Assembly: GCA_964596395.1 (NCBI GenBank)
Contig: CAZQSY010000001.1
Location: 108,091-172,090 of the forward strand
Direction: 5' to 3'
From: an uncultured Candidatus Saccharibacteria bacterium
Lineage (GTDB): Bacteria > Patescibacteriota > Minisyncoccia > Phycocordibacterales > UBA9973
DNA length: 64,000 bases
Notes under the pieces: generated by a model
What the model was told of the DNA's origin: nothing
Database searches by the model: none
What the model saw: the letters and a program-made list of their open reading frames with translations, nothing else
Made by a program: the position numbers and the translations under genes
Shown here: in pieces, positions 9,873-55,499 of the stretch
How positions within the stretch are numbered: the stretch's first letter is position 1
How the letters are laid out: each line of letters begins with the position of its first letter

Positions 9873-11354
9873 TTATTCTTTCCTGAGAAAAAGCGGGGTT
9901 TCTGGTTTTTTGTTTTCTTTGATAAGGTTTTTAATTTTTTCCGATGTCTCCGGCAGAAACGGTAAAAGCTCATCTGCTATAGCGGAGATACCCAAAACCA
10001 ATTCTTTTATCATTCCCTTTCCTTTTTCTTCGTCCATTTTTATAACCTTGAAGGGTTCTTCTACTTGGATTTTTTTGTCTAAATTCTGCACCTGGTTCCA
10101 AATGTGCTCCATCGCTTTCTGCAAATCAAACTTTTCAAAATGTTCAGAAAATTCTTCCGGCAATTCTACTGAATTTACAGGCAAGGCCTGTAAATATTTT
10201 CCCGAGAGAGTCAAAACCCGTGAAACCAAATTCCCCAACCCATTCGCCAAGCCCGAATTGTACGCGTCTTTGAACCGCTCCAAGGTAAACGGACTGTCTT
10301 CGAAACTGCTGACTTCCTTCAGCAAAAAATACCGCAGGGCGTCCGTACCGTATTCTTTTACGATGTCCCTCGGGTCAACACCATTACCCAATGTTTTTGA
10401 CATCCTGATTCCACCCTCGCCTGTAATGAAACCGTTAACGACAATCTGGCGCGAATTCGGCAAGCCCGCCGCCATGAGCATCGCCTGCCACATCGCCCCT
10501 TGAAAACGGGTATTGTCTTTGCCGCAGTATTGCGTCGGATTGCCGTTCACCCAATATTTTTCAAAATTGCCGCTAGAACTCTCATCGGGCCCGCCTGCAA
10601 CGCTATGCGTAGCATTGCGGGCAGGCCAGCCAAGGGTAGAAATATAATTCGTCAGCGCGTCAAACCACACATACATCACATGCTCCGAGTCGCCCGGCAC
10701 AGGAACGCCCCAGGGCATTTTCGTTCTAAGGCGGGAAATTGAAAAATCCTGAAGCCCGGCTCTGACGAAGCTTTTGAGTTCGTTGAAGCGAAAATCTGGC
10801 ACGACGAAATCTGGATTCTTTTCATAGAATTGCAGAAGTTTCTCTTGAAACGCAGAATACTTGAAAAAATAATTTTCTTCTTTGATTGTCTCTAATTTTT
10901 TACCGGGATGCACCGGGCATTCGCCGTTTTCATCTAATTCCGATTCGGTTTTCTCGCTTTCACAACCCACGCAGTATTTTGTTTCGTAATCCTTTTTGTA
11001 TATATACCCGTTCTTCTCGACTCTCTGCCAAAATTCCTGCGCCGCCGCCTCATGCGGTTTATCGGTGGTGCGCACGAAATGCACATCCTCGCTTACTCCA
11101 AACATTTTGAGCTGTTCTTTAAATGTCTCGAACCCGCGGTCTACAAATTCCTGCGGCGGCAAGCCGGCTTCTTTCGCCTTTTCATAAATTTTCATCCCAT
11201 GCTCGTCGGTGCCGGTATTAAAGTACACGTCATAGCCAGAAAGTTTTTTGTAGCGGGCAATCGCGTCTGCCCGCACGAATTCAAGCGCGTGCCCCATGTG
11301 AAGCGGCGCGTTGACGTAGGGCAAAGTGGTTGTAATATAAAAACTTTTTATCAC
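9873..11354 (-). CDS. metG: Methionyl-tRNA synthetase
   Basis: HMGH (HIGH-type) motif, KMSKT motif (IRMSKTLGNGVDP), zinc knuckle CVGCESEK...CPVHPGK. Confidence 0.95.
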   Translation of the reverse strand: MIKSFYITTTLPYVNAPLHMGHALEFVRADAIARYKKLSGYDVYFNTGTDEHGMKIYEKAKEAGLPPQEFVDRGFETFKEQLKMFGVSEDVHFVRTTDKPHEAAAQEFWQRVEKNGYIYKKDYETKYCVGCESEKTESELDENGECPVHPGKKLETIKEENYFFKYSAFQEKLLQFYEKNPDFVVPDFRFNELKSFVRAGLQDFSISRLRTKMPWGVPVPGDSEHVMYVWFDALTNYISTLGWPARNATHSVAGGPDESSSGNFEKYWVNGNPTQYCGKDNTRFQGAMWQAMLMAAGLPNSRQIVVNGFITGEGGIRMSKTLGNGVDPRDIVKEYGTDALRYFLLKEVSSFEDSPFTLERFKDAYNSGLANGLGNLVSRVLTLSGKYLQALPVNSVELPEEFSEHFEKFDLQKAMEHIWNQVQNLDKKIQVEEPFKVIKMDEEKGKGMIKELVLGISAIADELLPFLPETSEKIKNLIKENKKPETPLFLRKE

Positions 11355-14172: not shown

Positions 14173-15558
14173 CTAAATTTTTCCTTTTATAAAATTTATC
14201 AACCCCGCCACTTTCACTCTCTCCTGTTGCCCTGTATCTCTGTCGCGGACGGTGACTGTGTCGTCGGTGAGTGTGTCGAAGTCTATGGTAATGCAAAAAG
14301 GCGTGCCGATTTCGTCCTGCCTTCGATAGCGCTTGCCTATATTGCCGTTATCGTCCCACATCACTCGGCCAAATTCCACCTTGAGCGGGGCAAAAACTTT
14401 TTCACTAGCATAGTTCACCAACTCGGGCTTGTTTTTAAGCAAAGGTGAGACAGCGCAAATTACCGGCGCGATAGCAGGGTTAAATTTCAAAAAGGCGCGT
14501 GCTTCGTCTCCTTTCTCGTCTTCCGAATAAGCGGAGAGAAGCAAGGCCAGAATCGCACGGTCAAGCCCGAAAGACGGCTCAATTACATGTGGCACTATTT
14601 TTTGCTTGGTTTCCTCGTCCATATATTCAAGCCCGTGATTTTTTAAATCAAAATCGGTACGATAAGCCAAACCGAAAAGTTCTTTACGGCCGAAAGGATA
14701 GTCAAATTCAAAATCAATAGTTCTTTTTGAGTAATGCGCTCTGTCTTCGTCTGGTACTTCTAGCTCGTGCACCTTGCCCATATCAATTCCCACTTCTTCC
14801 ATCCATTCATTCATTTCGTCCTTCCAGTATTCAAAATATTTTTCCCATTCTTCCGGCCTGATAAAGTATTCTATTTCCATCTGTTCAAACTCTCGCAGAC
14901 GGAAAATAAAATCCCGCGGAGTGATTTCGTTCCTAAACGCTTTCCCGATTTGCGCCGTACCGAATGGAAGCTTTGGATGGTAAGCATCGACAACATTTTT
15001 AAAATTCACAAACATTCCTTGCGCGGTCTCGGGGCGGAGGTACGAAATCGCAGAAGAGTCGTCTGAAGCGCCGACTTTTGTCTGAAACATCATGTTAAAT
15101 TGTTTCGGTAATTCAAGCGTTTTACCGAGAATCCATTTTTCGCCACATTTCGGACACTTTGTCCCCGAATCCATTTTAATGTGTTTTCCTTTCATGCCAT
15201 TTTCTAAATTTTCTTCAGAATAGCTAAGTCCTGAAACCTGATCCGCTCGAAATTTTTCTTTGCATTTTTTACATTCAATCATCGGGTCGGCGAAATTCGC
15301 CACATGTCCTGTCGCCTGCCAAACTTCCTGCCGCATTAAAATAGCCGCATCCACGCCATACATATCCTGCCTTCCGTCGACGAACTTTTTCCACCAGGAG
15401 TTTTTGATATTATTTTTCAGCGCCACACCGAAGTGTCCCCAGTCGTAAGCGCCGCCGAGACCGCCGTAAATCTCCGAGCCGGAAAAAACAAACCCCCGCC
15501 GTTTGCAGAGCGAGACAATTTTATCCATCAAGTTGTTTTCTTTGTCAGAATTTTTCAT
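14173..15558 (-). CDS. glyQS: Glycyl-tRNA synthetase, alpha2 (class II) type
   Basis: About 460 aa single-chain GlyRS; RGFVFSGSEIYGGLGGAYDWGHFG; class II motifs and anticodon-binding C-terminus. Confidence 0.9.
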   Translation of the reverse strand: MKNSDKENNLMDKIVSLCKRRGFVFSGSEIYGGLGGAYDWGHFGVALKNNIKNSWWKKFVDGRQDMYGVDAAILMRQEVWQATGHVANFADPMIECKKCKEKFRADQVSGLSYSEENLENGMKGKHIKMDSGTKCPKCGEKWILGKTLELPKQFNMMFQTKVGASDDSSAISYLRPETAQGMFVNFKNVVDAYHPKLPFGTAQIGKAFRNEITPRDFIFRLREFEQMEIEYFIRPEEWEKYFEYWKDEMNEWMEEVGIDMGKVHELEVPDEDRAHYSKRTIDFEFDYPFGRKELFGLAYRTDFDLKNHGLEYMDEETKQKIVPHVIEPSFGLDRAILALLLSAYSEDEKGDEARAFLKFNPAIAPVICAVSPLLKNKPELVNYASEKVFAPLKVEFGRVMWDDNGNIGKRYRRQDEIGTPFCITIDFDTLTDDTVTVRDRDTGQQERVKVAGLINFIKGKI

Positions 15559-18157: not shown

Positions 18158-18817
18158 TTATATAACGAAATCCCGGAGTTCTTCTATTATTGGCTTGACT
18201 GTCTCGTCGTTTATATCTTCCGGCTTGATTTTGCACTTCGCGAAAATTTGCTTTTCAATGTTTCTCAGCGACTCACACAGGGGCTCAAAATTATCTGTCG
18301 CGATGGCGTGATTCAATTCTTTTATTCTTGCCAAGTATCTCTTTCTGCCTTCCTGAATACGCTCTCCCATAGAAACCACGCCGTGCGGGCTAACCCTCAT
18401 ATCTGAATAATTGGTAATTTTCTCCGCGAAAGACCCGCTTTGTTCAACCTCCGCGGCCTTAGAAAACCCCAGATTTTCAAGAAACATTCCGATCCCTCCC
18501 GAGACCCCCATCTCTTCAGCTATTAGTTTCGTGGCCAGATACTCGTCCGCGCCATATTTTCTCACATATTCATCTTTAACCTTTTGCCAATGTTCCAGCC
18601 CTTCCGGCTCCAGGAACTCCGGGAAGGCATTTAGATTGAACTTGATTATATTTCCCATATCATGAAGCAAACATGCCGTAACAATTTCCTGTCTTGGTAA
18701 GACCTCATCGAAATTTTCGCAAACCAAATACGCCACCGCCGCCACACGTAGCATGTGCTCCTGCAAACTAGGCATAATCTTATACTCTTCGTAAATTTCA
18801 GTGATTTTTCTTGCCAC
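18158..18817 (-). CDS. HD-domain phosphohydrolase
   Basis: H...HD signature (LQEHMLRVA ... LLHDMGNIIKF). Confidence 0.6.
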   Translation of the reverse strand: MARKITEIYEEYKIMPSLQEHMLRVAAVAYLVCENFDEVLPRQEIVTACLLHDMGNIIKFNLNAFPEFLEPEGLEHWQKVKDEYVRKYGADEYLATKLIAEEMGVSGGIGMFLENLGFSKAAEVEQSGSFAEKITNYSDMRVSPHGVVSMGERIQEGRKRYLARIKELNHAIATDNFEPLCESLRNIEKQIFAKCKIKPEDINDETVKPIIEELRDFVI

Positions 18818-21800
18818 TTATTTATTTTGGAGAATTTTTACCTTAAAAGCAAGGTCGCCTGCTTTTACTTCCTGGCCATCGTTTTTCTCCAGTTTCAAAT
18901 TTGACACAAGAACGGTCTTCAGCAGTTCCGGCTCAAATTTTTTCACCAGTTCTTCCCCATTCTTTTCTGTCTCAATATAAAGCGTTATCGAATCTTTCGG
19001 CGTAAGTCCCATATCTTTGCGCATGTCCTGCAAAGCCCGCACAAGCTCGCGAAAATCGCCTTCGGCTTTGAGTTCCGGAGTAATTTCCGTCCAGAGCAAG
19101 ATATTTTCGTCAATGTTGGTGCCCTCAACAACCTCTTTCACATTAAGTTCGTCTTTGACTAAATCAAGATATTCGCCGTCCAACTTTGAATCTTTCCATA
19201 TCTCTATTTTAGCTAACGGCTGCCTAACTTTTATTTTTTCATACTGCCGGCGCTCTAATCCGAGAGTGACTATCTTGCGAACTGTTTTCATTTTTTCCAA
19301 GACCTCTTTATCGCCAAACCGGAAAAACTTAAAACCTGCCTTAGGCCACTCGGCTAGATGCACACTTTCAGCTTCTTTTTCGTTTTTCAATTTCTGCCAG
19401 ATATCTTCAGCTGTAAACGGCGCGAAGGGAGCCAAGAGCTTCACTAAATTTTTCAAGACAAGATACAAGGTCTGTTTTGCTTCTTTGTCGCCTTCTTTCA
19501 TCCTATCCCTTGAGCGACGCAAATACCAAGTAGAAAGGTCTTCAATAAAATCCCGAACGCCCCGCACCGGCTCAAGTAATCTGTAATTTTCCAAACTTCG
19601 GGTAACAAGCTCGGTCAACTCGTCCATTCTCGCTAAAATCCATTTATCCAAAACATCGCCCGATTTCGGCTGGCTGTTTTTCTCGACCGAAGTGTCGCGG
19701 TAAAGTTCGTAGAACGCGAGAATATTGTAAAGCAGTCCGAAGACCTGCTGATGCAAGAGACGCACGGTTTTCTCGTCAAAATTTTTGGATTCGCCCGGCT
19801 GGTTGACTGAATACATCCATAGGCGAAGCGTATCAGCGCCGTATTTTTCTATCATTTCCCACGGGTCGACAATGTTGCCCAATGACTTCGACATTTTTTT
19901 GCCCTGCGCGTCGAGCAAATGCCCGAGGCAAATCACGTTTTTGTACGCCTTACCTCGGCCCATTAAAATCCCGACTGCGTGCAATGTGTAAAACCACCCG
20001 CGCGTCTGGTCTATGGCTTCAGAAATGTAATCGGCCGGGTATCCGGCACCTTCTACCCATTTCTTGCTTTCGAACGGGTAATGGTCCTGCGCGAAAGGCA
20101 TGGCACCCGAATCAAACCACACGTCCATCACTTCTTTCACTCGCTTTAAATCGCCCCCGCACTCGCAGACAACTTCCGTTTCGTCAATGTACGGTCTATG
20201 AAAATCAAGTTCGAAATCTTTATTGTGCGGAAGCGGAACAAAAGGAAACTCGGTAAATTCAGAGAATCCCACAGGCGGAATTGACGCTTCAAGTTCTCTG
20301 ATGGTTTCCTCGTCATTTAACCCAAGTGCACCAGCGACAATCAGTCTGCGTGGACCTTCGTGGGTAACGATGAGTATGTTTTCATTCTTGTATTTTTTGT
20401 CTATGTCGTAGAGAAAATTGGAAACTCTAAGTTTTACATCTCTCTGCGTTTCACTTCCATCCGTATCAAGAAAATATCTTTTTTCTCCGGTTTTATCCCC
20501 CCAAAATTCCCGCCATGTTCTACCCTTGAAACTGCCGGTGAATATCTCACGCAAACGTTTATCAAAAACAAGTTTGTCCTGCGGTAAGTCAAGCTCTTTC
20601 AAAATTATTTCCGCCGTCTCTTTGGTTCTCAAAAAATCTGAAGATATCATAAGAGTGATATCTTCTTTCCTCAGTTTCCGAGCCGAATCGAGTGCCTGCT
20701 TTTTACCCTCTTCGGTCAAATGGTCGTTGTCGCTTTCAATTTTGTTGCTTATGAGCCCCTTCAAATTCGCCTCGGCTTGCGCGTGTCGTATCGCGAAGTA
20801 TTTATTGCCGGATTTTTTGGTTTTTTCTTTCAGTTCTTCCAAACTGCCGATGACTTCTCTCTTATGGCATTTCTCGCATTCCCATACCGGAAGGGGCGTA
20901 CCCCAGTACCGCTCGCGCGAAATTGCCCAATCTTTAATCTCTCTTAGCCATTCGCCGAAGCGTCCTTCGCGTATGTGCGCCGGCTCCCAATTTATTTTCT
21001 CGTTTTCTTTTATGAGCTCATCCCTCAACTTTGACATTCCGATATACCAGGAATCGCGGGCGTAATATATGAGCGCGGTCTTACATCGCCAGCAGTACGG
21101 GTATGAGTGCTCGTATTTTTCTTTTTTCAAAAGTAGACCCCGGTGCGCCAAATCTTTGATAATCTCAACCGCGGTTTCTTCATCTCGGGTAAAACGCCCT
21201 TCCAGGAATCCTGTCCCCGACAGAAACTTTCCATCCAAACCTACCAGGTGATGCTTCGGCAGACCGATTTTCGTACCCAGCTCAAAGTCATCTTGGCCGT
21301 ACATCACGGCGGTATGCACCACACCGGTACCGTCTTCGGTCGTCACGAAATCAGCAGGATACACCTTGTATGCTTTTTCTAATTTAGGTTTCTCGCTTTC
21401 GGATATAACATTTTGCAAAAACGGATAAAGCGGCTCGTACTCAAGGCCGATTAAATTTTTTCCCTTTAGTTTTTCCAAAACCTGATACTCGCCTTGAATT
21501 TCCTGCAATCTTTTTTCCGCCAGTATTAAAACTTCATTTTCTTTTTTAATTTTTACGTAATCAATATCTTCCCCCACCGCGAGCGCGACGTTGCCCGGCA
21601 ACGTCCATGGTGTCGTCGTCCAAGCAAGAATGTAAAGCGGAGCCGCGGAATGATTTTCGAGTGTCTGGTTGAGGCCGTTCTTTGCCGAACTTTCTGCACG
21701 GCCGACCCGAGGACCGAGAAAATCATTCCGCGGCGAAGCGATAATTTTAAACTTTACGTAGACCGACAAGTCCTTCACATCCTGGTACCCCTGCGCGAGC

Positions 21801-22384
21801 TCGTGCGAAGAAAGAGCCGTGCCGCAACGCGGGCACCAGGGCACCACTTTGTAGTCCTTGTATAAAAGTCCCCGTTCGTTTACTTTCTTTACGATGTTCC
21901 AAAGCGATTCAATGTAGTCATTGTGATAAGTAACGTACGGATTCTCCTGGTCAACCCAATAGCCAATACGCTCGGTAAACTTGTTCCAGAATTCCAGATA
22001 CTCCCAAACGCTTTCTTTGCATTGCTGATTAAATTTCGCGATGCCATACTCCTCGATTGCTTTTTTTGAATCAAGCCCGAGCTTTTTCTCAACCTGCAGT
22101 TCCACCGGCAAGCCGTGCGTGTCCCACCCGCCTTTTCGGCGCACATGGCATCCGCGCATGGTCTTGTACCGAGGGATGGCATCTTTGAAAGCGCGAGCTT
22201 CGAGGTGGTGAATACCCGGCTTGCCATTGGCTGTCGGCGGGCCTTCATAAAAAACGAACTCCTTTCTGCCCTCGGTTTGCTTTACCGATTTTTCAAAAAT
22301 TTTATTCTCTTTCCAAAATTCCAAAATCCGTTCTTCACGTATCGTCGCTTCACATTTTTCGATTTTTTTGCTTTCCTCGTTCAT
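18818..22384 (-). CDS. ileS: Isoleucyl-tRNA synthetase with two insertions (31-aa repeat-element-derived segment; about 190-aa histidine phosphatase domain)
   Basis: HIGH-type motif PTANGKPGIHHLEAR, WTTTPWTLPGN (CP1 start), KMSKSLGNIVDP; 1188 aa, oversized because of the insertions. Confidence 0.95.
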   Translation of the reverse strand: MNEESKKIEKCEATIREERILEFWKENKIFEKSVKQTEGRKEFVFYEGPPTANGKPGIHHLEARAFKDAIPRYKTMRGCHVRRKGGWDTHGLPVELQVEKKLGLDSKKAIEEYGIAKFNQQCKESVWEYLEFWNKFTERIGYWVDQENPYVTYHNDYIESLWNIVKKVNERGLLYKDYKVVPWCPRCGTALSSHELAQGYQDVKDLSVYVKFKIIASPRNDFLGPRVGRAESSAKNGLNQTLENHSAAPLYILAWTTTPWTLPGNVALAVGEDIDYVKIKKENEVLILAEKRLQEIQGEYQVLEKLKGKNLIGLEYEPLYPFLQNVISESEKPKLEKAYKVYPADFVTTEDGTGVVHTAVMYGQDDFELGTKIGLPKHHLVGLDGKFLSGTGFLEGRFTRDEETAVEIIKDLAHRGLLLKKEKYEHSYPYCWRCKTALIYYARDSWYIGMSKLRDELIKENEKINWEPAHIREGRFGEWLREIKDWAISRERYWGTPLPVWECEKCHKREVIGSLEELKEKTKKSGNKYFAIRHAQAEANLKGLISNKIESDNDHLTEEGKKQALDSARKLRKEDITLMISSDFLRTKETAEIILKELDLPQDKLVFDKRLREIFTGSFKGRTWREFWGDKTGEKRYFLDTDGSETQRDVKLRVSNFLYDIDKKYKNENILIVTHEGPRRLIVAGALGLNDEETIRELEASIPPVGFSEFTEFPFVPLPHNKDFELDFHRPYIDETEVVCECGGDLKRVKEVMDVWFDSGAMPFAQDHYPFESKKWVEGAGYPADYISEAIDQTRGWFYTLHAVGILMGRGKAYKNVICLGHLLDAQGKKMSKSLGNIVDPWEMIEKYGADTLRLWMYSVNQPGESKNFDEKTVRLLHQQVFGLLYNILAFYELYRDTSVEKNSQPKSGDVLDKWILARMDELTELVTRSLENYRLLEPVRGVRDFIEDLSTWYLRRSRDRMKEGDKEAKQTLYLVLKNLVKLLAPFAPFTAEDIWQKLKNEKEAESVHLAEWPKAGFKFFRFGDKEVLEKMKTVRKIVTLGLERRQYEKIKVRQPLAKIEIWKDSKLDGEYLDLVKDELNVKEVVEGTNIDENILLWTEITPELKAEGDFRELVRALQDMRKDMGLTPKDSITLYIETEKNGEELVKKFEPELLKTVLVSNLKLEKNDGQEVKAGDLAFKVKILQNK
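21642..21734. repeat. Nested inverted-repeat element, copy C, inserted in frame (93 nt) in ileS
   Basis: Perfect 16-bp outer IR gccgcggaatgatttt (21642-21657) / aaaatcattccgcggc (21719-21734); core gagtgtctggttgag ... ggccgacccgaggaccgagaaaat matches the copy-A termini; on the minus strand it encodes SPRNDFLGPRVGRAESSAKNGLNQTLENHSAA. Confidence 0.65.
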
Positions 22385-22620: not shown

Positions 22621-24249
22621 TCACATCTTTTCCAATACCGGAATGCCCAAAACAGTAAGCCCGTTTTTCATAACGGTGGCAAAAGCATGGCTTAGGGCAA
22701 CTTTGTAGGGAGAGGACGGGTCTTCTGAATTAACGATTTGCTCTTTGCCGTAAAAGCTATTATACGCACGGGCAAGTTCTACCAAGTAACTAGCTATATA
22801 GTGGGGCGCGAATTCTTCCCCGGCTCTTAAGACAACCTCGGGAAAACGGTAAAGCAATCTTTCAACTTCCATCACCTGCCAATCTTGCGGAAGTCCGACT
22901 TCCGCAGAAATTTTATTTTCTTTCGCTTTTTCCAAAATAGAATTCGCGCGAGCGTAAGAGTACTGCAAATACACGCCCGAGTCGCCCTCGGTAGAAACCG
23001 ATTTTTCAATATCAAAAATTATATCCCCGCCCACGGCTTGTCGCAGAATCATGTACTTGATTGCGCCGATGGCCACCCGCTCGTCCCCTTTTACTTTTTC
23101 TTTGAGAAGATTAATCAAACTCTCGGCGGTAATAACATCGCCGGTGCGGGAACTCATCTTTCCCGTAGGTAGGCGAAGCATGCCGTGGGAAAGATGTTTT
23201 AGTTTTCCTTTGAGTTCTGGAAAAACCTCCCCGATGGCAACTTCGGTAACATCAAAAAAAGCATCCTGTTCGTTCGCGGTTATAGTTATTGACTGGTCGT
23301 AGGCGAATAAGTCCTTTTTGATTTTTGCCAGCCCGACTTCTTTGGCTTCGTAAGTGGGAAGTTTTTCGGAATTAAGAAATACTCTCGTATGCAAACCAAA
23401 TTTTTCACCCTCAAAAACAACAGCCCCTTCCGATTCTTTAAATACTTTACCTAGATTTTCTAAAACTAGTTTCTGTCCTATTTCCCCCGCTTCGCTTTCT
23501 AAAAAGTGGTGGTCGAAATGACTGTCTAGTTTTTTATAAATAGACTCAAAATATTCAAAAGAGGATTCCCTGCCAGCTTCAAATAAAAGGTTGATTTGTG
23601 AATCTGTGCCATCATAGATTTTTTTATTAATCTCAATGATTTCTTTCCTCGCACTTTCATCTTCCTCGTAAGCTTTATGACCATTGGCATACGCTACTAT
23701 AAAATTACCCGAGTGTTTCAAGAGATACCACACTGCTTTGGCCACATGCAAACCCTTGTCGCCATGATATGTGGCCGCCTTGACCTCCCCGCCACAAACT
23801 TTCACCAACCTCACTACCGCTTCGCCGATAGCATTGTTCATTAAATGCCCGATATGAAATTCTTTAAACGGGTTGGGCTGGGTGTGCTCTATAAAAAATT
23901 TCCTTCCGGAAAAAATATCACTCGCCCCAAAATTTCCATTTTCTGTAATTTTCTTTACGCTATCGGCAAAAAATTCTTTAGACAGATGAAAATTTATGAA
24001 CCCCGGCCCGGCAACTTGAATTTCCTGAATTTCGGGAAATCCACCCTGAGCTTGCCGAAGGGTCATTACGATTTTTTCCGCCAACTCTTTCGGATTCGTT
24101 TCTAGCTTTTTTGCCAGAACCATCGCTACGTTACTAGAGTAATCGCCGTTTTTGATATCTTCAGGGTGTTCAATGGCAAAATCCACATCTTCTTTTATTC
24201 CAAGATTTTTTAAAGCACTTTGTATTATTTCTTTTATCTTATCCTGCAT
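22621..24249 (-). CDS. argS: Arginyl-tRNA synthetase
   Basis: HIGH-type motif in FIEHTQPNPFKEFHIGHLMN; ArgRS N-terminal add-on and DALR-type anticodon-binding C-terminus; ORF track start 24273 overlaps dut, internal Met at 24249 chosen. Confidence 0.9.
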   Translation of the reverse strand: MQDKIKEIIQSALKNLGIKEDVDFAIEHPEDIKNGDYSSNVAMVLAKKLETNPKELAEKIVMTLRQAQGGFPEIQEIQVAGPGFINFHLSKEFFADSVKKITENGNFGASDIFSGRKFFIEHTQPNPFKEFHIGHLMNNAIGEAVVRLVKVCGGEVKAATYHGDKGLHVAKAVWYLLKHSGNFIVAYANGHKAYEEDESARKEIIEINKKIYDGTDSQINLLFEAGRESSFEYFESIYKKLDSHFDHHFLESEAGEIGQKLVLENLGKVFKESEGAVVFEGEKFGLHTRVFLNSEKLPTYEAKEVGLAKIKKDLFAYDQSITITANEQDAFFDVTEVAIGEVFPELKGKLKHLSHGMLRLPTGKMSSRTGDVITAESLINLLKEKVKGDERVAIGAIKYMILRQAVGGDIIFDIEKSVSTEGDSGVYLQYSYARANSILEKAKENKISAEVGLPQDWQVMEVERLLYRFPEVVLRAGEEFAPHYIASYLVELARAYNSFYGKEQIVNSEDPSSPYKVALSHAFATVMKNGLTVLGIPVLEKM

Positions 24250-24250
24250 T

Positions 24251-24673
24251 TCATTTTCTTCCGGTTGAACCAAACGCGCTCAAACCGCGAGAAGAATCTG
24301 AAAGTTCATCCGCTTCTTCAAGCTCGACAATTTCAACCGGATAAATTATCAACTGAGCCACTTTGTCTCCTATCTCGACAGTATAAGGCTTGTCGGATAA
24401 ATTAACTAGGTGAGTGTTGTACTCACCCCGAAACCCGGCATCGAAAACGCCGCCCATGGTGTGCAGTCCAGCTTTGGAAATACTGCTTTTATCTTTCACC
24501 ACAGCCGCGTAACCAGCCGGAAATTCAAGGGCGAAACCGTGGAAAAATCGATGGTGCCCCATCGGGGGGATGGTAACTTCTTCCATCGCATACATATCCA
24601 TACCTACATCTCCCGGATGGGCATATTTGGGCAACTTCGCGTCTTTATGCAATTTTTTTACTTTGATTTTCAT
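24251..24673 (-). CDS. dut: dUTP diphosphatase
   Basis: dUTPase motifs: AGYAAVVKDKSSISKAGL, GVFDAGFRGE, C-terminal RGLSAFGSTG. Confidence 0.85.
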   Translation of the reverse strand: MKIKVKKLHKDAKLPKYAHPGDVGMDMYAMEEVTIPPMGHHRFFHGFALEFPAGYAAVVKDKSSISKAGLHTMGGVFDAGFRGEYNTHLVNLSDKPYTVEIGDKVAQLIIYPVEIVELEEADELSDSSRGLSAFGSTGRK

Positions 24674-31719: not shown

Positions 31720-33246
31720 TTATTCTCGATTTTTTATCTCAAGGAGAAAGCTTTTCGCATTTCCCCCAAAAAGCTTGTAAGCAAACCAAGCGTATACGGC
31801 CATTGTCAGCACTAGAGGAAATTCTGGAATAGAGAGCGAAGCGAAAGGAACTCGCGCGAAAAAATTTACTACGGACATTTCGTAATGAAGTAAGAGATAC
31901 GACATGAAACCGAAAGGAACGGAAGCAAAATACCAAATTAACCCGGCGAATCCGGCAATAAAACCAAAACCCATGGTGAAAGGAATGAGCGGCAAAATCA
32001 AGACGTTGGCCGGCAATGCCACCAGCGAAAGGCTGCCCATTTTGTAAAGTATGAAAGGCAGAACAAAAATATAAACGGCAGTAGTAATAGAGAAAATTTC
32101 CCGCAGGCCGAAATAGGGCGTGACCCACTCAAAATATTTTTCAACTTTCGGAGCAAAAAATATCACCGCGACAGTGGCTAAGAAGGAAAGCTGAAAAGAT
32201 ACGTCAAAACGCAAAATGAAAGGGTTCCAGAGTACCATGACGATGCCTGCCAGAAGAAGCGCCCGGCCGGCATCATAGCCCCTGCCTGAAACTTTCGCGA
32301 AAAGAGAAATTACCGCCATCACCCCCGCTCGCACCGCGGTAGAAGGAGCGCCGGTCATGAGCACGAACAAAAATATGGAAAACATGCCGGCCCCCGCCGC
32401 CCATCCCATAGGCAAAAAAGAGAAAAATTTCATGAACCACTTGGCGACAATCATGATGTTGTAGCCGGAAAGAGCGACAATGTGTATCGTACCTGTTGAG
32501 ACGAGATTCTCCCGAAAAGATTCTTCAAACGAGGCCTTTTCACCTAAAATAAGGCCGGCCATGAGCAGAGATTCTGGTTCTCGAATGGCTTGATTTATTT
32601 TTTCGGAAAATTTTTCTTTGACGGAAAATAAAATTTCTTTCACCTTGTTCCCATCCCCACGCGAAATTATTTCAGCATCCGGATACTTCATCAGGTAAAA
32701 AATCCCGTCCTTGCGCAAGTAATTCACATAATCAAATTCTTTACCTTGGTCGGTTATGAAATTTTCCGGCTTTTTTAAAACTCCTTTTATATCCAATTTA
32801 TCTCCGTACTTAGAATTATTTTCCAGCCCTACTGTAACTAAAATTCTTGTTTTGAAACCTTTTTCTTCGGCTTCCACGATAAATTTCTGATTATTTTCGG
32901 CCACGTTCGGCTCATCGGCAATTTCACCGGTCAAAGAAACTCTCTGGCCTACTTTTGATTCGAAAAACTCCGGCACAGGCCTATCCGCAACGCTAAATCT
33001 CCAAATCCCAAAACAGAAAAGCAGAACAAAAACCGAAATTAAAACCCCTATTTTATTCTTGGAAACAAAAGTAAAAAACAAGAGCAGTGCAAAAGCTAAG
33101 ACCCCAAATAAAATAACAACGTGTAAATTCACAAAAACACCTGCCTCGCCGGCACCTGCCTGTCCGGTAGGCAGGGGCAGGAAAGAGCGCACAAGCACTC
33201 CCAGGATAAAACCCGCGCAAGCCGAGTAAAAAATTTTATCTTGCAT
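31720..33246 (-). CDS. comEC: ComEC/Rec2 competence channel protein (N-terminal OB/DUF4131 + competence domain, no MBL domain)
   Basis: Polytopic membrane protein; HIVALSGYNIMIV competence-domain signature; ends before any MBL motifs. Confidence 0.85.
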   Translation of the reverse strand: MQDKIFYSACAGFILGVLVRSFLPLPTGQAGAGEAGVFVNLHVVILFGVLAFALLLFFTFVSKNKIGVLISVFVLLFCFGIWRFSVADRPVPEFFESKVGQRVSLTGEIADEPNVAENNQKFIVEAEEKGFKTRILVTVGLENNSKYGDKLDIKGVLKKPENFITDQGKEFDYVNYLRKDGIFYLMKYPDAEIISRGDGNKVKEILFSVKEKFSEKINQAIREPESLLMAGLILGEKASFEESFRENLVSTGTIHIVALSGYNIMIVAKWFMKFFSFLPMGWAAGAGMFSIFLFVLMTGAPSTAVRAGVMAVISLFAKVSGRGYDAGRALLLAGIVMVLWNPFILRFDVSFQLSFLATVAVIFFAPKVEKYFEWVTPYFGLREIFSITTAVYIFVLPFILYKMGSLSLVALPANVLILPLIPFTMGFGFIAGFAGLIWYFASVPFGFMSYLLLHYEMSVVNFFARVPFASLSIPEFPLVLTMAVYAWFAYKLFGGNAKSFLLEIKNRE

Positions 33247-43326: not shown

Positions 43327-45078
43327 CTACTCTGAAACGACGCGAAAGACCTCCTCTAAAGAAGTATTGCCCAAAACCGCCTGGAAAACTCCGTCTTCGA
43401 GAATCGTCATCATGCCTTCGGTTTTCGCCTGCTTTTCTATTTCGTCCGAAGAAGCGCCACGCAAAACCATTTCTTTCACGGCCGGAGAAACCTTCAGGAC
43501 TTCGTGAATCCCCACGCGGCTCTGGTATCCGTCGGCCGACTCCTGACTCTTGGCCGGCTTGTAAAAAGGAACTTTGCTCCAGTCCTCCTTCGGCCCGACG
43601 AGCTTTTCGTTTTTTAGAAGCTCAAGCATCCGCTCTAAATTCACAACTTTCCCCAGATTTTTCAATTCATCCGCCGAGAGAAAATATTTTTCCCTGCTCG
43701 GCGTGAGCTTGCGCACCAGACGCTGGGCGATAATCGTCTTTACCGTTGAAACTATCAGAAACGGCAGAGCGCCCATGTCGATGAGACGGGGTATCGCTCC
43801 GGCCGCGGAATTGGTATGTATTGTAGAAAGCACCAGGTGGCCGGTCAGCGCGGCGTTTATCGCGAGACCGGCCGTCTCGCTGTCGCGGATTTCGCCCACC
43901 ATTATTATGTTCGGGTCTTGGCGCAGAAGCGAACGCAAGCCGCCCGCGAAAGTAAGCCCAATTTCGGGTTTTACCTGCACTTGGTTCACTCTGGGCATCT
44001 GATATTCTATCGGGTCTTCGACGGTGGAAATATTAACTTCCGGCCGGTTCAGCATCTCGAGCATGGTGTAAAGGGTAGTGGTCTTTCCGCTGCCGGTAGG
44101 GCCGGTGGCCAGCACCATGCCAATTTTTTGTTTCAGCGAATCGTGAATTCTCTCGAGCGCTTCCCCGTGAAAACCCAAGCCCTCCAGGGTAAAGCCGTGG
44201 GCGTTTTCTTTGAGTATTCTTATGACCGTTTTTTCTCCGTAAAAAATAGGCAGAGTAGAAACGCGAAAGGAAACTTTTTCTCCATTTTGCTCTATTTTGA
44301 ATCGTCCATCCTGCGGCAATCTTTTTTCGTCAAGCTTCAGGTTGGCCAGTACCTTGATGCGGGTGGTTATGCCGGGCGCCGCAGCTTTTTCCAAAACCAT
44401 GGCATCGTGCAGGATTCCATCTATCCTGTACCGCACAATCAAATCGCTCTCCCCGGGCTCTATGTGTATGTCCGAAGCGTTCTGAAGTATGGCGTGAAAA
44501 ATCAGAGAGTCCACGATTTTTACGACCGGCAAGTCCTCGGCCATGGCCTTGAGTTCCGCTTCCGTTTTTTCGGTATCCTTGGCGTCAACTTTCAGAGAAG
44601 CCGCTTCTTTTTTTATGATACTGTCAAAGTCGGCCTGCAAACTTTTTCGATACTGCACTAACGCTGATTTTATCGATAGAGAATCAGTCAGCCGGGGAAG
44701 AATTTTTTCTCCCGCCTTTTTCTTGATGAAATCAATCATCGGCAAATCGTCCACGTCGAGCATCGCCACCTCCAATCCCGATTTTGAATTTTGATAAGCG
44801 ATGATGTTGTGATTTCTGGCAATCGGTTCGGGAATCAAGGAGAGAACCGAAGAATCTATTTTTTTCTTGGTCAGGTCAACGAAGGGAATGCCCAGCACGA
44901 AGGCCTCCATGCGCTTCAAGTCGGTTTCGGACATTTTTTCTTCCGAAATCAAGAGGTCTCCCAGTTTTTGTTTTTTTGCCTCGGCTTTTTTCGCCAGCTC
45001 TTCCAAGTCGCTTTTCGCGATGACTCCCGATTGCAAGACCGCTTTCTTGAATTGCTCTTCGTTGATTTGCATTACCAA
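43327..45078 (-). CDS. pilB: Type IV pilus assembly ATPase PilB (GspE family)
   Basis: N-terminal GSPII_E_N domain, Walker A GPTGSGKTTTLY, Asp box, Walker B, His box. Confidence 0.9.
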   Translation of the reverse strand: MVMQINEEQFKKAVLQSGVIAKSDLEELAKKAEAKKQKLGDLLISEEKMSETDLKRMEAFVLGIPFVDLTKKKIDSSVLSLIPEPIARNHNIIAYQNSKSGLEVAMLDVDDLPMIDFIKKKAGEKILPRLTDSLSIKSALVQYRKSLQADFDSIIKKEAASLKVDAKDTEKTEAELKAMAEDLPVVKIVDSLIFHAILQNASDIHIEPGESDLIVRYRIDGILHDAMVLEKAAAPGITTRIKVLANLKLDEKRLPQDGRFKIEQNGEKVSFRVSTLPIFYGEKTVIRILKENAHGFTLEGLGFHGEALERIHDSLKQKIGMVLATGPTGSGKTTTLYTMLEMLNRPEVNISTVEDPIEYQMPRVNQVQVKPEIGLTFAGGLRSLLRQDPNIIMVGEIRDSETAGLAINAALTGHLVLSTIHTNSAAGAIPRLIDMGALPFLIVSTVKTIIAQRLVRKLTPSREKYFLSADELKNLGKVVNLERMLELLKNEKLVGPKEDWSKVPFYKPAKSQESADGYQSRVGIHEVLKVSPAVKEMVLRGASSDEIEKQAKTEGMMTILEDGVFQAVLGNTSLEEVFRVVSE

Positions 45079-45090
45079 TCATTTTATAAC

Positions 45091-45165
45091 AGAAAACTAA
45101 AAAAGCATATCTCTAGAAATTCGTACCCTAGAAAAGATATGCTTTTTAGTTTTCTGTTGAGTTAG
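45091..45165 (-). other. Long near-perfect hairpin (about 28-bp arms) between the giant surface protein gene and pilB
   Basis: aacagaaaactaaaaaagcatatctctag ... ctagaaaagatatgctttttagttttctgtt; arms complementary except for a 1-nt indel and 2 mismatches; loop aaattcgtacc. Confidence 0.55.
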
Positions 45166-48100
45166 TTTTCTATAAACACCGGTTTCTTGCCGCCGGTAGA
45201 TACGTACACCCACAATTCGTCGGGGGCCTGGCCGCCTGGGCCGGTGCAGGTGATTGAATATTTCGTGCTGCGCGAAGGCCCCGGGCTGACTAAAACACTT
45301 CCCTCAGTATCGCCGCCGGTCGTAATCGCGCCACCTTCGTAAATAATATTAGAGCAAGACGTGGTGTTGGTAGATGTCCATTCCAGAGTAAACGGCTCGC
45401 CAGAAGATATCGGGTTCTTTGAATCCGCCGAAAGCGAAAGGTTAGCGTTCGGAGAAGCCACTGTATCTGTGCAGATGCTCCCGTTCCAGAAAGTTGCAGA
45501 CGCGCAGTCAGCGAAAGCGGTAGCGCGAGCGAGCTCAATCCCGTCATTGTACAAGAAAAAAGTCCTCGGGCTTGAATCGTATGGAACCGGCAAACCTACG
45601 TTGTTCCCGAAATTTCCGGCCATAACAGTAGTTTTTGCTTCTGGATAGTTTGAGGTTATTGCCGAGTCCCCTGCCGGGTTTATGGTGGTCCAATCAAAGT
45701 GAACATCACAGCTACTGTTGCCCGAAAGTATCTCGCAAGGGCTGTCTAGGGGGGTCAAACTTCCAGTCGGAGCTTCGCCGCAAGCCGGCGCCTGGCAGGA
45801 TTGCGTGGGACTTCCTACACAATCAGCCCCGCCGTTGGCTGGAGCAGGGTTGGTGCATGTGCGTGTCTGCACGCCGGACTCTCCGCACATTGTCGCGCTA
45901 CAGGCGCCCCACTGCGACCATCCGCCGTCCACCGGGTCGCTGGTCACGGTCACATCCACCCATGCGCCGCAGTTATTGTTTTCGTTCGACTCGGTCACGA
46001 CGCCGGTAAAGGTCGGGTCATTGTCGGCGCAGGCGCGAACCGAATATGTGCCTGGAGCGATAAAGGTGTACGAGGGAGAGAAAGTTGTGTTATTTCCTCC
46101 GGCGGAAAGCGCTGGCATCAGGGTTGCGTTCAGCGATTCTATCGTGCCGAAACCGCCGGTACTTGAAGCCACCTGGAAAAAGTTCGGGAACGAAGTCGGG
46201 GTCGCGGCAGTGCCGGAGTTTGAGATGGTAGCCGAGAAAGTTACAGCTTCATTCGCGTTGACTTCTGTCGGCGAAGAACTGGAAGCAGTCAGTTCGGGTA
46301 AGGACGCGCCCGGGGTGGCAAAAGTGGCATCCGGAGAGTAGCCGGTGAGTCCCGCCGAGTTCGTGGCGTAACCTCGGTAGTAGTATACTGTTCCACCCGA
46401 CAAGCCGGTCCTTACGTGGGAATAGGCGACATTTACAGAAATACCGCCTTCGGCGCTGCAGTTTGAAGAAGGATTCGGCGCTGTTCCGAGACACGTGCCG
46501 CGGGCGGTGATAGTCGCCGGGATTCCGGCTGAAGTTACAGTCGCTCCGAGTGTCGCCTTATAGGTAGAACCGTCGAGAGAGATGTCCGACGAAGTGGGGC
46601 TCGCGACGGTCGGCGGGGTATTCCCCGAAGCGGCGAAGGTCGCGCTGAATGTCTGGTTTGAAGTTATGTTTGTGAAGGTGTAAGAAGTCGCGCTGGTAGT
46701 AGTCGGAGTACCGTTTACTATGTGCGAGGCAACTACATATCCGTTGCTTGGAGTGAGAGTAAGAGTAGTTGAATTCGTACCGTAAATCACCGAAGTGGTC
46801 CCCGCCGGAGAGATAGTTCCGTTTAACGCCTGAGTAACGGCGATAGTCGGTTTTGCTCTGCACTGCCCGCTTACCCAATCGCTGCCGGAAGCACACGTCG
46901 CAGTGGCGCTGCTTTGGTCGAGCAACACACCGTTGTTGTACAGATAAAATGTTTTTGTCCCGTCAGATATTTGATAATTAAGGGGCGATGTGTTGTTTCT
47001 AGAATCCGCCACCACTATTTGTGGCGGAGTAGTCACTTGAGAATAACTTGCAGGATTGTTTACGCTCCAGGAAATACTCGAGTTACAGGCGCTGGAACCT
47101 ATCGGAATAGTACAATCGGTAGAGGAGACATTGCCCGACATTTGCCCGGCTATCGCCGAGAAAGAAGCAGTAACCGTACAAGCCGAAGTTACCGGACCCG
47201 TGGTGTAAATACTTCCCGCAAGTGAGCCGCCGCAGCCGGTAACAGTATTTATCTCATAACCGCTGTTCGGAGAAATGGTGAAAGAACCAGTGGAATTGTA
47301 GTTCACATTCCTGGAAGACGGGGTGATGGTCCCGCCGACCCCTCCACTAACTGAAGTGCCGACCGTGTATGAATTTAGAGAGAACGAAGCAGATACGTTG
47401 CACCCCGAAGTAATCGCACCAGTCGTATAAGTCGTACCCGAAAGCGAGCCGTTGCAACCGGAAGCGGAAGCGGTGTAACCGGCAGTCGGGGTAACAGTAA
47501 ATGTTGTGGTAAGGCCATGATTCACTGTCCTAGTTGAAGGAGTAATTGAACCGCCGGCCCCACTACCACTTGAGGTTACCGTGTACGAATTTTGCGAGAA
47601 AGTCGCGCTAACTGTACAGTTCGCGGTAATAGAGTTTGTCGTGTAAATATTTCCGGCAAGAGATCCGCCGCAGGTGCCGCCGACCGAAGCGGTGTAGCCG
47701 GTATTCGGAGTAACGGTGAAGGAAGTGTTGTCGCCCGATGCTACGGTTTGAGCAGTATTTGGAGATATGGAACCACCAGCGCCGGCGCTGGGAGTAACTG
47801 TATAGGTATTAGAAGCCACGGTAATATTCTTCCAGGGACCGCAGTTGTTGCTCTCGTTTGATTCAGTGATGGTGCCAGCGTTTGACGAACTGGTCTTGTC
47901 AGCACAAACGCGGATGGAATACGTGCCAGCCGGGCTGAAAGTAATTGATGGGGAGGTAGCCGTATCCATTCCCCCGGCGGTAACCGCAGGCATGGTACCG
48001 CTTGGCGTTCTGTCGGCGGGTGTCCCGCACCCGCCTCCCGTATTGCATGTCTGGAAAAAATAACTGAACGAAGCGCCGGTCGAAGCATTGCCACCGTTGG

Positions 48101-53498: not shown

Positions 53499-55499
53499 AT
53501 GAATTCGTATCTTTTGTTTGCGATTGTCTGTTCTTTGGTTGGCATCTTTTACGGGCTTTTCCTTGCCCGGACGATTCTCCGGAAAAGTCCCGGCAATGAA
53601 AAAATGCAGTCCATCGCGAATGCGATTGCCGAAGGAGCGAAAGCGTACCTGAACAGGCAATACAAAACCATCGGCGCCATTGCCGTCATTTTGTTTTTCG
53701 TGCTTTGGTTCGGTTTGGGTATTTATTCAGCGGTAGGATTCATCGTCGGCGCGTTTTTGTCTGCTCTGGCCGGCTACGTCGGCATGAACGTTTCCGTGCG
53801 GGCGAATGTGCGCACAACTGAAGCGGCCAAAGAAGGGTTGAGCAAAGCCCTGGGTCTCGCTTTCAGAGGAGGCACGGTTACCGGCCTCTTGGTAGTAGGA
53901 CTGGCTCTATTGGGAGTAGCGGTAATTTACCTCGCTACCGGCGACATGAAAGCGCTGGTCGGCTTGGGCTTCGGCGCTTCGCTTATTTCCGTTTTCGCCC
54001 GGCTTGGCGGAGGAATTTTCACCAAAGCGGCCGATGTGGGCGCCGACTTGGTCGGAAAAGTTGAAGCCGGCATTCCAGAAGACGACCCGAGAAATCCGGC
54101 TGTTATCGCGGATAATGTCGGCGATAATGTCGGCGACTGCGCGGGTATGGCGGCCGATTTGTTCGAGACATACACAGTCACTTCAGTCGCTACTATGCTT
54201 TTGGGTTCGCTTCTTTTCACAAATTTTGAAAACGCGCTTCTGTATCCGCTCGCTATCGGCGGGGCGGCGATTCTTTGTTCAATCATCGGAACCTGGTTCG
54301 TAAAACTCGGAAAAAACAAAAACATCATGGGCGCCCTTTACAAGGGGCTGATTGCCTCGGGAGTTTTGGCCGCGGCCTCTTTCTATCCGCTCACCAAAAT
54401 GCTGATGAGTGAAAATCCCGGAAACTACACAGTGGGGGGGCTTTTCGCGAGCGCAATCACGGGACTAGTAGTGACGGGATTGCTCGTCGTGATTACCGAA
54501 TATTTCACTTCTACTCAATACTCGCCGGTCAAATCCATTGCCGAGGCCTCTATCTCGGGACACGGTACGAATGTGATTCAGGGCCTGGCCGTCTCGATGA
54601 AATCAACAGCCCTTCCCCTCTTAACAATTATCATGGGAATTTTGGTTACTTACCATTTCGGCGGACTTTACGGCATAGCGGTAGCAGCCATGGCCATGCT
54701 TTCAATGACCGGGATAATCGTGGCGATTGACGCTTACGGCCCGATTACCGACAACGCCGGCGGAATCGCCGAGATGGCCGAACTTCCTGATTCGGTTCGC
54801 GATGTCACCGACCCGCTCGATGCCGTGGGTAATACTACTAAAGCGGTTACCAAGGGCTACGCTATCGGTTCGGCCGGGCTCGCAGCGCTGGTGCTTTTCT
54901 CGGCTTACACCGAAGAAATCAAGGTGGTGGCCGGCGAAGTTATGAAATTTGATTTAAGTGACCCGAAGGTAATCGTGGGTCTTTTCATCGGCGGACTTTT
55001 GCCTTATTACTTCGGCGCTTTGTGCATGGAAGCGGTGGGAAAAACCGCCGGCAAGGTTGTCGAAGAAGTGCGCCGACAGTTCAGAGAAATCAAAGGAATT
55101 ATGGAAGGCAAAGCCAAGCCCGAATACGGCAAATGCGTAGACATAGTTACAGGAAGCGCAATTAAGCAAATGATCGTTCCAGCTCTTATCCCCGTGCTTG
55201 CCCCGCTCTTGGTAGGATTCCTCTTAGGGCCGGTGGCGCTCGGCGGACTTTTGGTCGGCTCGATCATCACCGGGCTCTTTGTCGCAATTTCAATGACCTC
55301 CGGCGGTGGCGCTTGGGATAACGCCAAAAAACACATTGAAAAAGGACATCACGGGGGCAAGGGCTCGGACGCACACAAAGCGGCCGTCACCGGCGACACT
55401 GTGGGCGACCCATACAAAGATACCGCCGGCCCGGCCATTAACCCGATGATAAAAATACTAAACATCGTGGCACTCCTCATCGTCGGGCTTTTGTTCTAG
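53499..55499 (+). CDS. hppA: Membrane-bound proton/sodium-translocating pyrophosphatase
   Basis: About 16 TM helices; [20 protein letters not shown] and [19 protein letters not shown] signatures of H+-PPases. Confidence 0.9.

Follow-up and report, generated by a model that had tools for sequence, protein, structure and literature searches.

Why would an isoleucyl-tRNA synthetase (IleRS) carry a complete phosphatase domain inside its catalytic core? The question is raised by the ileS gene in a 64,000-nucleotide stretch of DNA, here called the window, from an uncultured Candidatus Saccharibacteria bacterium (assembly GCA_964596395.1, contig CAZQSY010000001.1, positions 108,091 to 172,090). Few enzymes are as well studied as aminoacyl-tRNA synthetases (aaRSs), whose accessory domains usually have a function, such as editing, tRNA binding, or signaling. 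Isoleucyl-tRNA synthesis has no known step that requires a phosphatase. The identity of the substrate would reveal either an unrecognized phosphorylated intermediate or damage state in tRNA charging, or the way in which streamlined genomes pack unrelated enzymes into essential genes. Judged from sequence comparison and structure prediction, the insert is probably a catalytically competent short phosphatase of the PhoE/PspA/CobC class and a built-in module of a functional type-2 IleRS. That an active phosphatase is functionally partnered with IleRS is likely. Because sister lineages encode it as a translationally coupled gene upstream of ileS, the phosphatase probably works with IleRS and is not merely lodged there.

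The ileS gene and its product

The window contains one ileS and one His_Phos sequence, and both are the same gene, a single uninterrupted open reading frame (ORF) of 1188 amino acids in the ORF list. The gene and the motifs of its synthetase portion are located as follows.

18818..22384, minus strand: ileS, type-2 isoleucyl-tRNA synthetase with embedded phosphatase (single ORF, TIGR00392 score)
22205..22216, minus strand: G57-I-H-H60, the GXHH form of the class I HIGH motif (aligned to PGVHH of the 8c8w chain)
21602-21622, minus strand: CP1 motif WTTTPWT, residues 255-261 (sequence)
19883..19897, minus strand: KMSKS, residues 830-834 (sequence; column invariant in 63 close homologs)

The product scores 889.3 bits against NCBIfam TIGR00392 (cut-off 621.4). 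The closest solved structures are Priestia megaterium IleRS2 (8c8w) and Thermus thermophilus IleRS (1ile), both at E ~1e-241 with end-to-end alignment. Pfam identifies tRNA-synt_1 (PF00133), His_Phos_1, Anticodon_1, and DUF5915, and the type-2 domain set is complete, with a Rossmann core, a CP1 editing domain, an anticodon-binding domain, and the DUF5915 C-terminus. Since KMSKS and an intact CP1 motif are present, the synthetase is considered complete. GXHH is a functional IleRS2 variant of HIGH that confers up to 1000-fold higher mupirocin resistance (Brkic et al., 10.1101/2023.01.31.526100). From the conserved motifs and from its being the sole ileS of the window, we infer that the protein is the isoleucine-specific IleRS.

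A second lineage-specific segment of ~27 residues (PRVGRAESSAKNGLNQTLENHSAAP...) is found at the entry of the CP1 editing domain (residues 224-251, ~nt 21632-21715, minus strand). It has no counterpart in 8c8w and falls below a predicted local distance difference test (pLDDT) score of 50 in the full-length AlphaFold2 (AF2) model; it is therefore probably a disordered loop.

Position and boundaries of the insert

The phosphatase interrupts a zinc knuckle, the two halves of which lie on either side of it.

20867..20878, minus strand: C503-E-K-C506, first half of the zinc knuckle (sequence)
20228..20824, minus strand: inserted segment, residues 521-719, phosphatase domain with both linkers (8c8w alignment)
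20153..20167, minus strand: C740-E-C742-G-G, second half of the zinc knuckle (sequence; aligned to CPVC of 8c8w)

Read along IleS, the motifs are RERYWG (490-495), CEKC (503-506), RHA (533-535), LTEEG (556-560), LRTKET (585-590), VTHEG (673-677), HRPYIDE (729-735), CECGG (740-744), and DVWFDSG (754-760). The original prediction, made from the sequence alone, had proposed a histidine phosphatase within the catalytic core of IleS. All of the motifs that it quoted are found in the single 1188-residue ORF, and its coordinates 20240-20812 are exactly residues 525-715. Its placement of the domain in the core is correct, as the His_Phos_1 match splits the tRNA-synt_1 match in two. Its figure of 50-60 residues for canonical IleS is about right for the whole stretch from RERYWG to VWFDSG.

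In the alignment to 8c8w, residue 520 pairs with chain residue 476 and residue 720 with residue 480, so that the window protein has ~200 extra residues where 8c8w has ~3. Relatives that lack the insert give the same picture: window residues 518 to 723 correspond to 478 to 481 at locus L089, and 520 to 727 correspond to 489 to 497 at locus L082. The insert is thus located at the tip of the zinc-knuckle hairpin, between C503-x-x-C506 and C740-x-C742 and just upstream of the Rossmann-core DVWFDSG. It is flanked by conserved linkers and not by splice junctions. All four zinc-knuckle Cys residues are invariant among 63 close homologs. Across 69 species-level orthologs (drawn from loci L001-L080), C506, C740, and C742 are kept in only ~72%, and some lineages have therefore apparently lost the zinc site while keeping the phosphatase.

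Family, fold, and active site of the phosphatase

The domain and its catalytic residues map to the following positions.

20306..20794, minus strand: His_Phos_1 (PF00300) envelope, residues 531-693 (Pfam, E=9.5e-30)
20780..20788, minus strand: R533-H534-A535, the RHG motif with the nucleophilic His (aligned to RHAESEWN of PspA 4ij5)
20627..20629, minus strand: R586, second phosphate-pocket Arg (SSDFLRTKET, aligned to SSPLKRT of 4ij5)
20546..20548, minus strand: E613, predicted general acid (RLREI; E in 130 and D in 20 of 151 copies)
20360..20362, minus strand: H675, second catalytic His (IVTHEG, aligned to VVSH of 4ij5)

The Pfam search on IleS returned His_Phos_1 at 104.1 bits, far above the cut-off of 21.7, over profile positions 3-165 of 194; the excised insert alone gave E=4.5e-31. 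The domain identity that had been proposed is therefore confirmed. Modeled alone with AF2, the insert gives a confident phosphoglycerate mutase-like alpha/beta fold (pLDDT 93.3; predicted template modeling score, pTM, 0.89), as the original prediction had expected. In the full-length AF2 model it is the best predicted part, and most 10-residue blocks of residues 511-710 score ~84-94.

A Foldseek search with the insert model found 273 PDB matches at E<=0.001 with probability 1.00, and the best 50 listed are all His_Phos-family enzymes. The top matches are PspA/iPSP1 (4ij6/4ij5), GpgP (4pz9), HFP (9mmh), PhoE (1h2e), and CobC (6e4b), with template modeling (TM) scores up to 0.70/0.77 (the match to 4ij6) and root-mean-square deviations (rmsd) of 2.4-3.2. 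By sequence, the best solved match, among the short branch-1 phosphatases, has E=2.4e-10, and identity to characterized short phosphatases is 22-27%. In NCBIfam, the insert scores 59.8 bits against PspA NF045917 (cut-off 350), 75.6 against CobC TIGR03162 (162.9), and 23.8 against SixA TIGR00249 (74.5).

The insert could in principle be a cofactor-dependent phosphoglycerate mutase or another glycolytic mutase of that type fused to IleRS. Its top NCBIfam match is indeed the mutase model dPGM_arch (NF038349), and one source labels a relative K15634 gpmB. The dPGM_arch score is 84.5 bits against a cut-off of 225, however, and the second mutase model, TIGR01258, gives 19.5 bits against 81.7. The domain has ~170 residues and lacks the extra segment and C-terminal tail of the 230-250-residue mutases. 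Mutase structures also rank lower in the Foldseek search and superpose at rmsd 7-9. A mutase is thus very improbable. Because the fold ranking favors phosphatases and no NCBIfam cut-off is reached, the domain is predicted to be an uncharacterized subfamily of the phosphatase type and not a mutase.

Conservation was examined in two sets: 151 near-complete domain copies from clusters at <=50% identity, and 69 full-length orthologs from species genomes. Among the 151 copies, R533, H534, S582, R586, and H675 are kept without exception, and an acidic residue (E or D) occupies position 613 in 150. Most copies (134) have G at position 535; 15 have A, as does the window protein (A535). In the 69 orthologs, R533, H534, N540, G560, S582, R586, and H675 are 100% conserved, and E613 and R653 are 98% conserved. 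The catalytic motifs named in the original prediction hold up in this strict conservation and in the alignment to solved phosphatases. In the same orthologs, mean column conservation is 0.54 in the insert versus 0.82 in the synthetase core, making the insert the least conserved part of the protein. Because the scaffold varies while the catalytic set stays invariant, the insert appears to be selected as an active enzyme, a predicted phosphatase, and not as a spacer.

Distribution among Patescibacteria

The embedded phosphatase is a lineage trait of candidate-phyla-radiation (CPR) bacteria (Patescibacteria, mostly Paceibacteria/Nomurabacteria) and is kept over much of that radiation. All 120 of the best full-length homologs (1138-1365 residues) list PF00133 together with PF00300; they are 62-69% identical to the window protein, apart from one identical protein (P0121). 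The domain was also found in all 80 of the relatives examined at their loci, which are a subset, with one genome per species, of 388 found in the scan. These relatives have 50-66% identity over the whole or nearly the whole query, including the insert. The survey of related genomes that had been proposed along with the domain thus yields the same insertion throughout (80/80 species genomes and 120/120 homologs). Full insert-bearing relatives are named as Nomurabacteria, Paceibacterota, Minisyncoccia, Campbellbacteria, and Taylorbacteria, and fragments as Uhrbacteria, Magasanikbacteria, Niyogibacteria, Nealsonbacteria, and Kaiserbacteria; Peribacteria are represented as well.

Three insert-bearing IleS proteins (P0140, P0023, and P0024) were deposited as Burkholderiales, Sedimentisphaerales, and Nanoarchaeota. 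They share 40-67% identity with Patescibacteria proteins and look like binning or labeling errors, not true occurrences outside the CPR.

The hundreds of public entries with this architecture carry generic names ("class I tRNA ligase family protein" or "isoleucine--tRNA ligase") and have PF00300 in their precomputed domain lists. Some were deposited years ago, such as P0128 from Nomurabacteria GW2011.

An oversized synthetase could also result from a structural or regulatory spacer without activity, from a mobile insertion of the intein type, or from an error of assembly or a frameshift. The one point in favor of these readings is the GC content of the insert, which is slightly lower than that of the remainder of ileS (0.425 vs 0.465). 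A dead spacer is rejected on the invariance of the catalytic residues in the 151 copies. An intein is rejected since Pfam finds no Hint/splicing or endonuclease domain and the flanks are not splice junctions. A public contig of 200,395 bp encodes the identical protein P0121, which excludes a local assembly error; the frame is continuous, and orthologs occur in hundreds of independent assemblies. The probability left to this group of explanations is negligible.

Stand-alone homologs upstream of ileS

The closest free-standing homologs of the insert are proteins of 180-204 residues that are 39-45% identical to it; one of them, P0387, lies below all curated NCBIfam cut-offs. Eight of nine are encoded directly upstream of ileS (P0392, P0387, P0396, P0393, P0389, P0397, P0255, and P0282). 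In seven of these eight, the distance to ileS ranges from a 4-nt overlap, with stop and start codons sharing ATGA, to a 4-nt gap. The exception is P0389 at locus L088, where a small gene called on the other strand lies between the phosphatase and ileS. The ninth homolog, P0252, follows argS and precedes a gene that is cut by the contig end.

These split loci have the order argS - phosphatase - ileS - recO - DUF11/CLIPPER protein - class II aaRS, where argS was counted only if the upstream gene was visible and annotated. The window has the matching order ArgRS - IleRS(phosphatase) - HD - RecO - DUF11 - GlyRS. In all four split loci that were aligned (L082, L086, L088, and L089), ileS lacks the insert and encodes a normal short zinc-knuckle hairpin. 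Complete ileS products at other split loci have 923-941 residues, a length that fits an insert-less enzyme. Split-locus ileS products are 40-56% identical to the window enzyme, and their HIGH motifs are GIHH (L089), GVHH (L086), and HYGH (L082). Naturally split versions for comparison are available at L082, L089, and L090. Conversely, no separate His_Phos ORF was found within 4 kb of ileS in the 80 insert-bearing loci. Since the free-standing and inserted states are complementary, the most plausible reading is that both forms of the domain represent one putative functional partner of IleRS.

The argS-ileS-recO-DUF11-glyS order is also kept in the distant relatives L081, L082, and L090. At L081 and L085 (sample ERZ25039515), ileS, and in L081 only also argS, is broken into several short called genes. 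These are most likely long-read frameshift errors and not genuine split synthetases.

Other insertion sites, tandem copies, and ValRS

An exhaustive search with the insert alone returned 760 cluster representatives at E<=1e-10. The best 150 of these comprise 90 copies embedded in class Ia synthetases, 55 proteins of <=260 residues, and 5 others. Alignment of the unusual members distinguishes three His_Phos insertion sites in IleRS. Site A is the zinc-knuckle hairpin, which is the site used in the window and the majority type. Site B lies after D(V/C)WF(D/E)SG.MP.A and before FPADFI.EG.DQTRGWF and is occupied in P0329 and by copy 1 of P0372, both of which have nothing at site A. Site C lies just before the anticodon-binding domain, near window residue 905, and holds the second copies of P0372 and P0293. 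P0372 represents a cluster of six members on contigs of up to 1.06 Mb, and such forms are therefore not assembly noise.

Tandem copies are also found. P0364 and P0315 (Peribacteria), which represent two lineages, carry two copies in tandem at site A. In a neighbor-joining tree, the first copies of the two proteins group together, as do the second copies (88-89% bootstrap). The duplication is therefore ancient, and neither copy has since been lost. Copies within one protein are <=36% identical and are therefore not recent duplicates. On this tree, the site B and C copies may come either from site A copies or from free-standing genes, and the direction of change may have been insertion or fission. 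The IleRS proteins with unusual sites or tandem copies have 1217-1468 residues, apart from P0315, a partial sequence of 1025.

The association extends to valyl-tRNA synthetase (ValRS). In P0241 (ENA, contigs <=3.9 kb), the N-terminal 417 residues of ValRS precede a tandem array of at least four His_Phos domains, and the protein is truncated at the contig end. Its assignment to ValRS follows from 411 bits to NF004349 versus 199 for the ileS model. R, H, R, E, and H are present in the three complete copies; the truncated fourth retains as many of them as it covers. The tRNA-synt_1 profile breaks at position 198 in P0241 and at 275 in IleS, so this is probably yet another insertion site. The core R-H...R...E...H set is intact in all unusual-site, tandem, and ValRS copies, within the reach of the cut fourth copy of P0241. 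On these alignments, the synthetase-phosphatase association appears to have arisen more than once. Repeated insertion, duplication, and a coupled stand-alone gene are the classic signature of a functional partnership.

Proposed function

From family chemistry, H534 would attack the terminal phosphoryl group of a phosphomonoester-type substrate held by R533, R586, N540, and H675. E613 would protonate the leaving group, and the phospho-histidine intermediate would then be hydrolyzed. In the weakest step of the explanation, the substrate would be a phosphorylated ligand of the IleRS catalytic domain. Such a location is favored because the DVWFDSG strand of the Rossmann core lies between sites A and B (topology per Brkic et al.), from which we infer coupling to the active site. 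It is also favored because the hosts are IleRS and its paralog ValRS and not the MetRS, ArgRS, or GlyRS of the window.

Candidate substrates are suggested by analogy. Charging is blocked when toxSAS enzymes pyrophosphorylate the CCA end of a tRNA, a modification that HD-type hydrolases remove (Kurata et al., 10.1101/2021.04.30.441581). One toxSAS enzyme, FaRel2, is reported to be specific for particular tRNAs (PMC11245113). In the window, an HD-domain gene follows ileS.

18158..18817, minus strand: HD-domain gene, 219 residues, possible second phosphohydrolase partner in one subclade (Pfam HD 28.1 bits, cut-off 22)

The ileS TAA is directly followed by the GTG of this gene. An HD homolog lies downstream of ileS in 10 of the 80 loci (6 abutting, 2 ~0.5 kb away, and 2 fused). 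The HD domain is fused to the IleRS C-terminus in L040, L042, P0148, and P0199, as confirmed with Pfam, and P0169 lists PF01966 among its precomputed domains. The HD-fused IleRS protein hits, of 1317-1365 residues, thus contain two different phosphohydrolase domains. Against PADLOC-DB, the HD neighbor has weak matches only, to the Cas3 HD region at E ~1e-3. Neither PDB nor NCBIfam yields a match to the HD gene, and with an occurrence in only 10 of 80 loci it is regarded as specific to a subclade and outside the core system.

Based on the toxSAS precedent and on the HD protein that abuts or is fused to IleRS in one subclade, a tentative guess is that the phosphatase acts on a 2'/3'-phosphorylated or pyrophosphorylated A76 of tRNA-Ile, or on an adenine nucleotide phosphorylated at its 3' position. 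The role of the module would then be to make the tRNA 3' end chargeable again or to clear an inhibitory nucleotide. The original prediction had suggested action in cis on a phosphorylated small molecule or a nucleotide; nothing observed contradicts this, and the operon, multi-site, and tandem-copy findings strengthen a link in function to IleRS, though not any particular substrate. A more specific and decidedly speculative version is tRNA 3'-end repair, in which the IleRS-bound phosphatase would clear A76 of tRNA-Ile (or of tRNA-Val, for ValRS) of a 2'/3'-phosphate or pyrophosphate. The synthetase could in this way recharge tRNAs inactivated by toxSAS-like or RNase toxins, with help from the HD protein in one subclade. 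If true, this would add a new class of tRNA healing that is coupled to a synthetase and would give episymbiotic CPR bacteria an integral countermeasure to tRNA-targeting conflict systems.

Several observations weigh against a dedicated role in charging. The insert reaches no curated NCBIfam subfamily cut-off, and its cap region (residues 614-645), the usual determinant of specificity, is poorly conserved in the 69 orthologs. The nearest characterized relatives all act on small metabolites. The variable insertion site and copy number argue against a precise channeling geometry, and since argS precedes the free-standing gene wherever the upstream gene is visible and annotated, adjacency does not by itself point to IleRS. 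The full-length AF2 model has a pTM of 0.51, with a synthetase core that is poor because of the shallow alignment (62-70% identical sequences). No PADLOC-DB defense model matches the insert, nor does any match the free-standing homolog. The HD neighbor is sparse and matches only the generic HD profile, not the RSH-hydrolase profile.

Some of the same observations would fit a housekeeping phosphatase that performs unrelated metabolic dephosphorylation and resides in ileS only for co-expression, after a gene beside ileS had been copied into surface loops that tolerate insertions. Its nearest relatives of solved structure dephosphorylate small metabolites, the site and number of insertions vary, and the cap is poorly conserved. 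Moreover, a source gene directly upstream of ileS raises the supply of such rearrangements. Such hitchhiking would nevertheless require that three sites, anciently retained tandems, and the ValRS case were all neutral in the core of an essential enzyme. It does not account for the argS-phosphatase-ileS adjacency, which is maintained across IleS lineages that share only 40-56% identity with each other and have HYGH, GVHH, and GIHH motifs, or for the strict complementarity between stand-alone and inserted forms. Nor is such a domain present in the three further aaRS genes of the window. We regard this explanation as doubtful and favor the reading in which the phosphatase is a working partner of IleRS.

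The choice of IleRS as host could also be explained by self-protection, in which the phosphatase inactivates a phosphorylated inhibitor of IleRS/ValRS or reverses an inhibitory phosphorylation of the synthetase (e.g., by a HipA-like kinase). The GXHH motif, tied to mupirocin hyper-resistance by Brkic et al., indicates inhibitor pressure on the lineage. NCBIfam also holds an IleS model with an added GNAT domain (NF040702). Detoxification of aminoacyl-nucleotide antibiotics is a function of GNAT enzymes such as MccE, and GluRS/TrpRS are targets of the HipA/HipT kinases. We know of no phosphorylated natural inhibitor of IleRS, however, and the phosphorus of aminoacyl-adenylate mimics is internal, not terminal, and is not attacked by the His_Phos fold. 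The conserved neighborhood of the split loci contains no kinase or toxin gene, and the PADLOC search was likewise negative. Self-protection is therefore improbable.

Finally, the insert lies close to the catalytic core and could hydrolyze the inorganic pyrophosphate (PPi) or AMP that IleRS releases, pulling aminoacylation forward. PhoE-type enzymes are promiscuous and can hydrolyze AMP. PPi, in contrast, is not a typical substrate of branch-1 enzymes, and its removal by the insert is unlikely because the window encodes its own pyrophosphatase.

53499-55499, plus strand: membrane H+-translocating inorganic pyrophosphatase (Pfam H_PPase, 913 bits)

All aaRSs would share the need for product removal, yet the MetRS, GlyRS, and ArgRS of the window, all encoded within 15 kb of ileS, have no phosphatase domain.

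9873-11354, minus strand: MetRS gene
14173-15558, minus strand: GlyRS gene
22621-24273, minus strand: ArgRS gene

Product removal is thus a very unlikely function.

Relation to known enzymes

The short branch-1 phosphatases PspA (4ij5/4ij6; PspA/iPSP1 from Hydrogenobacter thermophilus), PhoE (1h2e; Geobacillus stearothermophilus), CobC (6e4b/6nru), GpgP (Rv2419c, 4pz9), and HFP (9mmh; riboflavin pathway) share the fold, the length of ~170-200 residues, and the RH...R...E...H set with the window domain. They are free-standing and have known small-metabolite substrates, whereas the window domain and its relatives are embedded in, or operon-coupled to, an aaRS. On the synthetase side, the window enzyme shares GXHH, KMSKS, CP1, the zinc knuckle, and DUF5915 with type-2 GXHH IleRS (Brkic et al.; 8c8u-8c9d; 1ile). 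In comparison to 8c8w, it adds a second catalytic domain at the zinc-knuckle tip and the ~27-residue segment 224-251.

Other fusions offer partial parallels. The bifunctional RNase H/acid phosphatases (NF005567, PRK07238; Rv2228c/SCO2299 type) likewise join a CobC-like His_Phos domain to a nucleic-acid enzyme. In contrast to the window protein, they are end-to-end fusions with an unrelated partner and not insertions, and the insert scores 64.7 bits against a cut-off of 326. IleS with GNAT (NF040702, ileS_w_GNAT) is a curated precedent for an IleRS with an additional catalytic domain, but that domain is GNAT and not a phosphatase. The window protein, at 336.9 bits against a cut-off of 1999, is not a member, and its IleS has no acetyltransferase match in Pfam. 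The small alarmone hydrolases of the HD type that counter toxSAS are a parallel of logic only, being phosphohydrolases that restore the chargeability of the tRNA 3' end. They have the HD fold and not the His_Phos fold, are free-standing antitoxins, and have no demonstrated homology to the insert.

The literature searched contains no description of an aaRS that has a histidine phosphatase as an insert or as an operon partner, and a 2026 preprint on IleRS evolution does not mention the phosphatase-bearing architecture. The statement in the original prediction that this is not a described architecture agrees with the literature searched; the sequences themselves were already public under generic names. 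The parts are known (GXHH IleRS2 and a branch-1 phosphatase). What is new is a second intact catalytic center inside the synthetase core, convergent insertions, and a split-gene counterpart.

Other features of the window

ARAGORN detected no tRNA genes in the 64-kb window. No Rfam family reached its gathering score there, and no T-box leader was found upstream of ileS, argS, metG, or glyS. Elsewhere, the window encodes a predicted surface protein of 2281 residues with five divergent InlB B-repeat domains and CARDB. It adjoins a type II/IV secretion ATPase, and ComEC is encoded further along.

45162-52007, minus strand: surface protein
43327-45078, minus strand: secretion ATPase
31720-33246, minus strand: ComEC

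Together, these genes are typical of the pilus/competence and adhesin equipment of episymbiotic CPR bacteria.

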